The notes under the pieces: model-generated
The model's database searches: none
The model's input: the letters and a program-made list of their open reading frames with translations, nothing else
Told to the model about the DNA's origin: nothing
Position numbers and translations under genes: made by a program
In this document: positions 60,739 to 60,856 of the stretch, piece by piece
Layout: every line of letters begins with the position of its first letter
Numbering within the stretch: the stretch's first letter is position 1
Assembly: GCF_003334305.1 (NCBI RefSeq)
Contig: NZ_QOWS01000010.1
Length of the DNA: 64,000 bases
Source of the DNA: Escherichia coli
GTDB taxonomy: Bacteria > Pseudomonadota > Gammaproteobacteria > Enterobacterales > Enterobacteriaceae
Reading direction: 5' to 3' (one strand)

Positions 60739-60812
60739 AGCACCATCCCTCTTCATGTTTTAACCATGAGCGTTTGCGCCCGTGATCTGCCATTAAGTCT
60801 GGTTGCTAACAG

Positions 60813-60849
60813 CAAAAAAACCACCCGGCAGCGAAAATTCACTGCCGGG
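60813..60849 (-). terminator. Hairpin/terminator between phoA and psiF (likely partial terminator)
   Basis: CCCGGCAG-(10 nt)-CTGCCGGG stem with T-run (A8 on + strand) downstream on the minus-strand transcript. Confidence 0.55.
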
Positions 60850-60856
60850 CGCGGTT

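Follow-up and report, generated by a model that had tools for sequence, protein, structure and literature searches.

Intrinsic terminators that set gene ratios within operons consist of a G+C-rich stem, a short loop and a U-tract just past the stop codon of a highly expressed gene, and the gene downstream of them is co-regulated at a lower level. The hairpin that follows phoA in Escherichia coli is alike in all these respects and nothing about it differs in kind, its one particularity being that its 3' shoulder and its U-tract appear to double as the upstream half of a promoter. The operon that phoA forms with psiF has been published, with the same genes, the same gene order and the same PhoB dependence; the published descriptions, as far as accessed, treat it as a simple two-gene unit, with no mention of terminator leakiness or an internal promoter, and a full-text literature search on the phoA terminator found nothing. 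The operon, the PhoB control of phoA and intra-operon intrinsic terminators are already known and textbook matter. Two further described systems are relevant for a comparison. In translation-sensitive terminators, a stop codon near the hairpin lowers the termination efficiency, and the phoA stop codon in the E. coli sequence likewise lies 5 nt from the stem; this likeness is geometric only, and short stop-to-terminator distances are common and do not require selection. Sigma-S promoters, whose extended -10 consensus is KCTAYRCTTAA (Weber et al. 2005, quoted in PMC5650638), share with a conserved box downstream of the phoA hairpin the C in front of the hexamer, the A2, C5 and T6 of the hexamer, the TAA that follows and a poor -35 element, and psiF mRNA likewise depends on RpoS and Crl. 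The box differs from this consensus at hexamer position 1, which is C in place of T, and at position 3, which is G.

The window, i.e. the whole stretch of 64,000 nucleotides of E. coli DNA that was analysed, contains the following genes of this locus:

62272-60857, minus strand: phoA coding sequence (alkaline phosphatase), GTG start (ORF list, RefSeq annotation under a 100% match, MG1655 coordinates)
60859-60857, minus strand: phoA stop codon TAA (sequence)
60738-60418, minus strand: psiF coding sequence, 106 aa with signal peptide and two repeats, ATG at 60738 (ORF list, annotation, MG1655)
60316-59201, minus strand: dgcC (adrA/yaiC) coding sequence (annotation)

The interval 60739-60856 is exactly the phoA-psiF intercistronic spacer of 118 nt, which is also the size of this gap in MG1655. 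The segment 60400-61100 is 100% identical to the sequence of E. coli strain AR_452, where psiF and phoA are annotated, and it is found in 5426 of 5426 complete E. coli genomes, at a median of 1 place per genome. The ORF list begins psiF 18 nt farther upstream, at 60756 on the minus strand (MKRDGAMKITLL...), but this ATG is confined to Escherichia and lies in an otherwise non-conserved part of the untranslated region (UTR), so that the conserved start is the annotated one, at 60738. It is likely that the hairpin in this spacer is a leaky Rho-independent terminator of phoA, and that the same DNA contains a second, PhoB-independent promoter of psiF.

An earlier note on this DNA had described a stem between phoA and psiF that is followed by a T-run. 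Both are indeed present, and the two arms that were pointed out, CCCGGCAG and CTGCCGGG, form the core of a longer, 13-bp stem. Its anatomy is as follows:

60851-60822, minus strand: terminator stem-loop with a 13-bp stem and a 4-nt loop (fold, scan, covariation)
60851-60839, minus strand: 5' arm of the stem, CGCCCGGCAGTGA (sequence)
60838-60835, minus strand: loop ATTT (sequence)
60834-60822, minus strand: 3' arm of the stem, TCGCTGCCGGGTG (sequence)
60821, minus strand: single G between stem and T-run (sequence)
60820-60814, minus strand: U-tract, T7, beginning 1 nt past the stem (sequence)

Nine of the 13 stem pairs are G-C, the hairpin folded alone reaches -25.0 kcal/mol, and the 132-nt region around it folds with a z-score of -3.8 in comparison to dinucleotide shuffles. 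A strict terminator scan of the 64-kb window, with thresholds of 11 or more contiguous pairs and, after them, 6 or more T within 8 nt, resulted in about 8 sites, the phoA hairpin among them, in comparison to a mean of 0.36 in 100 dinucleotide shuffles. In a lenient consensus terminator scan of a 6-kb stretch, the phoA hairpin was the best match, with 9 sites found and 8.4 expected, i.e. there was no enrichment.

For the analysis of conservation, a PsiF search with one genome per species gave 80 loci. phoA lies directly 5' of psiF in 64 of these, and 15 have no PhoA match upstream. Together with MG1655 (L001), the 64 phoA-psiF loci provided a comparison set of 66 distinct spacer sequences from Escherichia, Citrobacter, Enterobacter, Klebsiella, Raoultella, Kosakonia, Leclercia and other genera. 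In all 66 spacers a hairpin directly follows the phoA stop codon (median distance from stop to stem 5 nt, range 0-11), with a median of 12 pairs and a median of -21 kcal/mol, and in 58 of them at least 6 of the 8 nt past the stem are T. In the covariation alignment of 65 distinct sequences, 88.8% of the cells are paired, in comparison to 29-55% when the partner column is slid by 1-3 columns. In 10 of the 13 stem pairs, changes occur on both sides, and the covariation score was reached by none of 500 shuffles. RNAalifold, which was run independently, predicted this stem helix as well, and 8 of its 9 predicted pairs have compensatory changes. As the pairs of the hairpin covary, the terminator role is most likely functional, and by its anatomy the phoA hairpin with its U-tract is, as far as sequence can tell, a canonical conserved intrinsic terminator. 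In a few Citrobacter lineages (L013, L014, L017, L068), the stem is degraded and the U-tract is interrupted.

Could the hairpin be a chance inverted repeat or a mobile REP-like repeat that plays no role in transcription? The lack of enrichment in the lenient scan would agree with this, but the covariation, the fixed place after the phoA stop codon across genera and the strict scan with its shuffle controls speak against it, and so do the median of one copy per genome and the Rfam scan of 58000-64000 on both strands, which gave no match at E-values up to 1. Copy number and covariation rule out a REP element or a chance repeat, and we regard the probability of this explanation as negligible.

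The phoA promoter contains the following element:

62351-62336, minus strand: Pho box of the phoA promoter, TGTCATAAAGTTGTCA (10/10 match to TGTCA-N6-TGTCA)

This is the only 10/10 match to TGTCA-N6-TGTCA within 60300-62700, and on the gene strand near psiF there is no match of at least 8/10. A PhoB ChIP-seq site has been published at MG1655 401676 (phoA), where the sequence is the same as the Pho box of the window, and the same MG1655 data have no peak between 401676 and 417093. The Pho box at 62351-62336 is the sole strong PhoB site of the phoA-psiF unit, and psiF indeed has no Pho box of its own, as had been supposed in the earlier note. The RNA-seq part of the PhoB ChIP-seq study (Fitzgerald et al. 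2023; MOPS medium, 0.2 mM phosphate, DESeq2-normalised counts) compared the wild type with a phoB deletion mutant. The mean counts of phoA were 310,112 in the wild type and 1,548 in the mutant, those of psiF 32,618 and 755, and those of yaiC (dgcC) 455 and 65. From these published counts it follows that psiF RNA is about 43-fold PhoB-dependent. In the wild type at low phosphate, the densities (counts divided by gene length) were 219 reads/nt for phoA and 101.6 reads/nt for psiF, a ratio of 0.46 that refers to steady-state RNA, in which termination and differential decay are not separable. The normalisation by gene length is approximate, and the ratio becomes about 0.40 when about 74 nt are added to each gene length, which is the read length minus 1 for an assumed length of 75 nt and allows for edge reads. 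A comparison of phoA and psiF read depth under phosphate limitation had been suggested beforehand, and with psiF at about 0.40-0.46 of phoA the two depths are unequal.

The literature names the unit phoA-psiF operon, and a psiF that is PhoB-dependent without a Pho box or a PhoB ChIP peak and has about 0.46 of the density of phoA is what co-transcription via a leaky terminator would produce. The claim that co-transcription is modulated by an incomplete terminator thereby finds support, and the simplest reading, in which the hairpin partly stops the transcription from the phoA promoter and partly lets it pass into psiF, is supported by these data. In this mechanism, PhoB would fire the phoA promoter under phosphate limitation, part of the phoA RNA signal would stop at the U-tract at 60820-60814, and about 40-46% per nt would go on into psiF. 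This read-through would make psiF a Pho-regulon gene without a Pho box of its own and would keep it below phoA. It speaks against this explanation that efficient termination would normally be predicted for so strong a hairpin with a perfect U7, and that the sequence alone leaves the leakiness unexplained. A possible reason is the short distance from the stop codon to the stem: with only 5 nt in between, a ribosome that terminates on phoA could occlude the stem base and thereby weaken the terminator, and the hairpin may thus be leaky despite its strength and its U7, in contrast to the psiF terminator, past which the RNA drops 250-fold despite a poor U-tract. This is a geometric argument. With respect to RNA 3' ends, Term-seq in LB at OD 0.4 and 2.0 (Adams 2021) has none at the phoA hairpin in the data as accessed, and phoA is barely expressed under these conditions. 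The supplements of TERMITe and SMRT-Cappable-seq contain no phoA or psiF entry.

What alternatives exist for a partial termination at the hairpin? Read-through could in principle be nearly complete, with the hairpin being a barrier to 3'-exonucleases or a processing stop, so that the phoA RNA outlives the psiF segment and the step-down reflects segmental decay. Stable 3' hairpins protect upstream mRNA segments, and the RNA-seq data in which the step-down is seen are steady-state data. A pure stability element would not need a U7 that begins 1 nt past the stem and is kept in 58 of 66 spacers, although this conservation of the T-run may in part stem from the overlapping promoter that is described below. 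On balance we consider segmental decay unlikely, and we infer that the step-down from phoA to psiF results from termination.

The second part of our main conclusion concerns the DNA that follows the stem. The elements of the proposed psiF promoter and of the psiF 5' UTR are:

60824-60819, minus strand: GTGGTT, putative weak -35-like element, which is the 3' shoulder of the terminator (suggested by the conservation of TGG)
60802-60793, minus strand: invariant box C-CAGACT-TAA, proposed extended -10 element of sigma-S type, ACCAGACTTAA (alignment, consensus match)
60788, minus strand: psiF transcription start site (TSS), an A preceded by C, 50 nt 5' of the ATG (Cappable-seq)
60787-60739, minus strand: psiF 5' UTR with a local hairpin at 60787-60762 (fold)
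60752-60746, minus strand: psiF Shine-Dalgarno (SD) region AGAGGGA (AAGGATGGTGCT-ATG conserved in the alignment)

In the alignment of the whole spacers, a second invariant block, C-C-A-N-N-C-T-T-A, lies 3' of the U-tract, and none of the 66 distinct phoA-psiF spacers lacks the box. The TGG of the shoulder is located exactly 21 nt 5' of the box in 65 of the 66 sequences, which corresponds to a 17-nt spacer between the two elements; its T and its second G are invariant, and its first G is at least 90% conserved. The distance between the box and the terminator is fixed, whereas the distance between the box and the psiF ATG varies. As insertions always fall 3' of the box, i.e. in the psiF 5' UTR part to which the length variation of the spacer is confined, the predicted 5' UTR has lengths of 23-287 nt. 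The Citrobacter loci L016 (2643-2997) and L068 (2782-2997) have palindrome-rich insertions in the psiF 5' UTR that result in spacers of 355 and 216 nt, and these insertions are also found 3' of the invariant box, as in all other cases. Among the structured RNA families of Rfam (riboswitches, leaders, sRNAs), no covariance model matched the psiF spacer region. A PhoP-box-like reading of GGTTTT-N5-TGTTAG was dropped, its second half not being conserved.

In comparison to the sigma-S consensus in the form quoted above, the box matches at 8 of 11 positions, and the matching positions, namely the C before the hexamer, A2, C5, T6 and the following TA(A), are the invariant ones (56-66 sequences). GTGGTT matches only 2 of 6 positions of the -35 consensus; it may be a weak -35-like element, with the T-run as part of the promoter spacer. 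The match of the whole promoter to the sigma-70 consensus is poor (5/12), and a consensus sigma-70 promoter scan flagged nothing on the gene strand of the spacer, for which reason the promoter call rests on TSS data and conservation. A promoter of sigma-S type whose -35 element is poor would be expected to escape a sigma-70 scan.

Cappable-seq of mid-log cells in M9 glucose places a primary 5' end of psiF at U00096.2 402455(+); its relative read score is 11.35 and its log2 enrichment 4.49. In the same phosphate-replete culture this psiF start exceeds the starts near phoA, which have scores of 2.9-5.1. The psiF start is 8 nt past the last base of the hexamer CAGACT. For its placement in the window we take the offset from U00096.2 to U00096.3 to be +776, which converts 402455 to 403231, i.e. 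window position 60788. This conversion is consistent with the MG1655 coordinates of phoA and with a pyrimidine-purine start. Published data moreover connect psiF with sigma-S: in wild-type EDL933 its mRNA (start site unspecified) has 73 times the level of an rpoS mutant, with phoA not being listed; the Crl regulon includes psiF; and in O157 Sakai psiF goes up at the transition to stationary phase. The box is therefore a candidate -10 element for recognition by sigma-S. The terminator 3' shoulder at 60824-60819, a 17-nt spacer that consists of the T-run and 10 further nt, and the box at 60802-60793 would together constitute a PhoB-independent promoter that yields a monocistronic psiF mRNA from 60788 and serves phosphate-replete and stationary-phase cells. 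The view of psiF expression as read-through from phoA, taken by the earlier note, thus holds and is incomplete, in that it had missed this PhoB-independent promoter within the same 118 nt.

With a promoter of its own, psiF could also be thought to be transcribed solely from there, the hairpin being an efficient terminator that makes phoA and psiF separate units. The capped 5' end inside the spacer, the RpoS dependence of psiF without phoA and the fact that in the phoB deletion mutant the psiF density is 2.15-fold above the phoA density would all agree with this. However, the about 43-fold PhoB dependence of psiF in the absence of a Pho box and of a nearby PhoB ChIP peak is difficult to explain without read-through. 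In these RNA-seq counts, the loss of phoB shifts several RpoS-dependent genes (msyB, hchA, yegP, ftnA) by no more than about 2-fold, and sigma-S can therefore not explain the 43-fold difference of psiF. We thus regard completely separate units as highly improbable and keep to the combination of a leaky terminator with an additional psiF promoter.

The box could alternatively act as RNA and not as a promoter: in read-through transcripts, the box ACCAGACUUA might pair with the psiF SD region AAGGAUGGU and mask it. In Kosakonia, Phytobacter and relatives, the box ACCATCCTTAA is by eye perfectly complementary to the SD sequence AAGGATGG(T), and in the minimum-free-energy fold of the E. coli spacer the box region pairs with GGAUGGUGCU. 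The mean unpaired probability of the SD is 0.35 when upstream RNA is present and 0.48 when the RNA begins at the TSS, with higher values for the short form in 51 of 66 spacers, but there is no difference for Escherichia (0.30 vs 0.34), and in E. coli the complementarity of box and SD is interrupted. The distance of the box is moreover fixed to the terminator and variable to the SD, the two variable positions of the box are those where a -10 hexamer tolerates change, the variants CAAAAT and T-CAGACT keep the A and T of the hexamer, and the capped 5' end is found at the distance that is expected of a -10 element. The overall effect on SD accessibility is modest, and a role of the box as RNA in place of a promoter is in our opinion improbable. 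The two roles of the box do not exclude each other, as the TSS is 3' of it. The spacer might serve a conserved dual use, in which the box (ACCAGACUUA; ACCAUCCUUAA in Kosakonia) damps psiF translation from read-through RNA, RNA that starts at 60788 escapes this effect, and the ribosome at the phoA stop codon sets the extent of read-through. We consider such a dual use unlikely; if true, it would couple the psiF dosage to phoA translation. The sRNA CpxQ is reported to repress PsiF close to the SD.

A natural test is offered by the 15 loci without an upstream PhoA match, among them Salmonella arizonae and diarizonae, several Enterobacteriaceae and members of the E. cloacae complex. A terminator-like hairpin persists in three of these loci (L022, L065, L076). 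Loci that clearly are without phoA have a weak hairpin or none (-1.6 to -13 kcal/mol), yet they keep (G/A)TGGTTTTTT and the 17-nt spacing; the box is present in most phoA-less loci, and where it varies (T-CAGACT, CAAAAT) the A and T of the hexamer are retained. As the TGG shoulder and the T-run are kept while the hairpin decays in phoA-less genomes, their conservation has a reason other than termination, which agrees with the proposed psiF promoter. Remnants of the former arrangement can be recognised in some of these loci. Salmonella arizonae and diarizonae (L015, L024) retain the hairpin's 3' arm, the T-run and, with TATAAA behind it, the box, and four loci of the E. cloacae complex (L056, L060, L061, L066) retain the final codons of phoA (CTGAAATAA) together with a decayed hairpin. 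The psiF gene of Salmonella enterica subsp. diarizonae CCUG 30040T (L024) has an in-frame stop at about codon 62 (R*SAPGEK...), which suggests a pseudogene or a sequencing error. One locus of the search, L027, has the title Chryseobacterium sp. 18061 and is an enterobacterial psiF locus with 87% protein identity, in an arrangement nearly identical to that of Citrobacter sp. 18056 from the same study; this is probably a mislabelled or contaminated assembly.

The unit ends downstream of psiF at a further hairpin:

60400-60375, minus strand: psiF terminator hairpin GGGTGAGCTAC-GAAA-GTGGCTCACCC, end of the phoA-psiF unit (fold, Term-seq, RNA drop)

In the Term-seq data as accessed, a 3' end is present at MG1655 403649(+), i.e. 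window position 60370, in LB at OD 2.0. Although the U-tract of this terminator is poor, dgcC has an RNA density about 250-fold below that of psiF according to the published counts. The RNA of yaiC is about 7-fold PhoB-dependent without a reported PhoB site, at a density of about 0.4% of that of psiF, and this dependence is most simply explained by a small amount of transcription that passes the psiF terminator. On the opposite strand of psiF and dgcC, the accessed part of the Term-seq data at OD 0.4 in LB contains a very strong 3' end with 23,469 reads at MG1655 403612, which corresponds to window position ~60407 on the plus strand and lies on the far side of the psiF terminator hairpin at 60375-60400. 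About 100 nt 5' of this end there is a promoter-like TTGAAA-17-TATTTT at 60279-60307 on the plus strand. This suggests that the psiF terminator works in both directions and that the 5' region of dgcC is covered by an abundant antisense transcript.

Within psiF, Cappable-seq has a strong primary start at U00096.2 402757(+), i.e. window position 60486 on the minus strand, whose relative read score of 58 is five times that of the psiF promoter. It is located 7 nt past an extended -10 element, TGTAATAAT (60501-60493), which is formed by the codons Cys-Asn-Asn. This element is restricted to Escherichia, while other genera encode NV, NA or NS at this position. A start at 60486 and a 3' end at about 60370 would give an RNA of about 117 nt that consists of the last 68 nt of psiF and the terminator. 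Within phoA, the accessed Term-seq data have a 3' end at MG1655 401850 (window position 62169, minus strand), 103 nt past the start codon, at both LB densities, and the data on bicyclomycin sensitivity, likewise as far as accessed, contain a Rho-dependent region at MG1655 402024 (window position ~61995, minus strand). This points to a premature end of basal phoA transcription in phosphate-replete cells.

These results support a leaky internal terminator in a textbook Pho-regulon operon, which matters little beyond housekeeping, and the overlap of the terminator 3' half with a conserved and probably sigma-S-dependent psiF promoter is a modest, annotation-level addition. The conservation of a terminator U-tract can have a second cause. 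The leaky internal terminator would explain how psiF is regulated by phosphate without a Pho box and why its level is below that of phoA. psiF is not purely operonic, and its own, probably sigma-S-dependent promoter would reconcile its membership in the PhoB regulon with that in the RpoS/Crl regulon.
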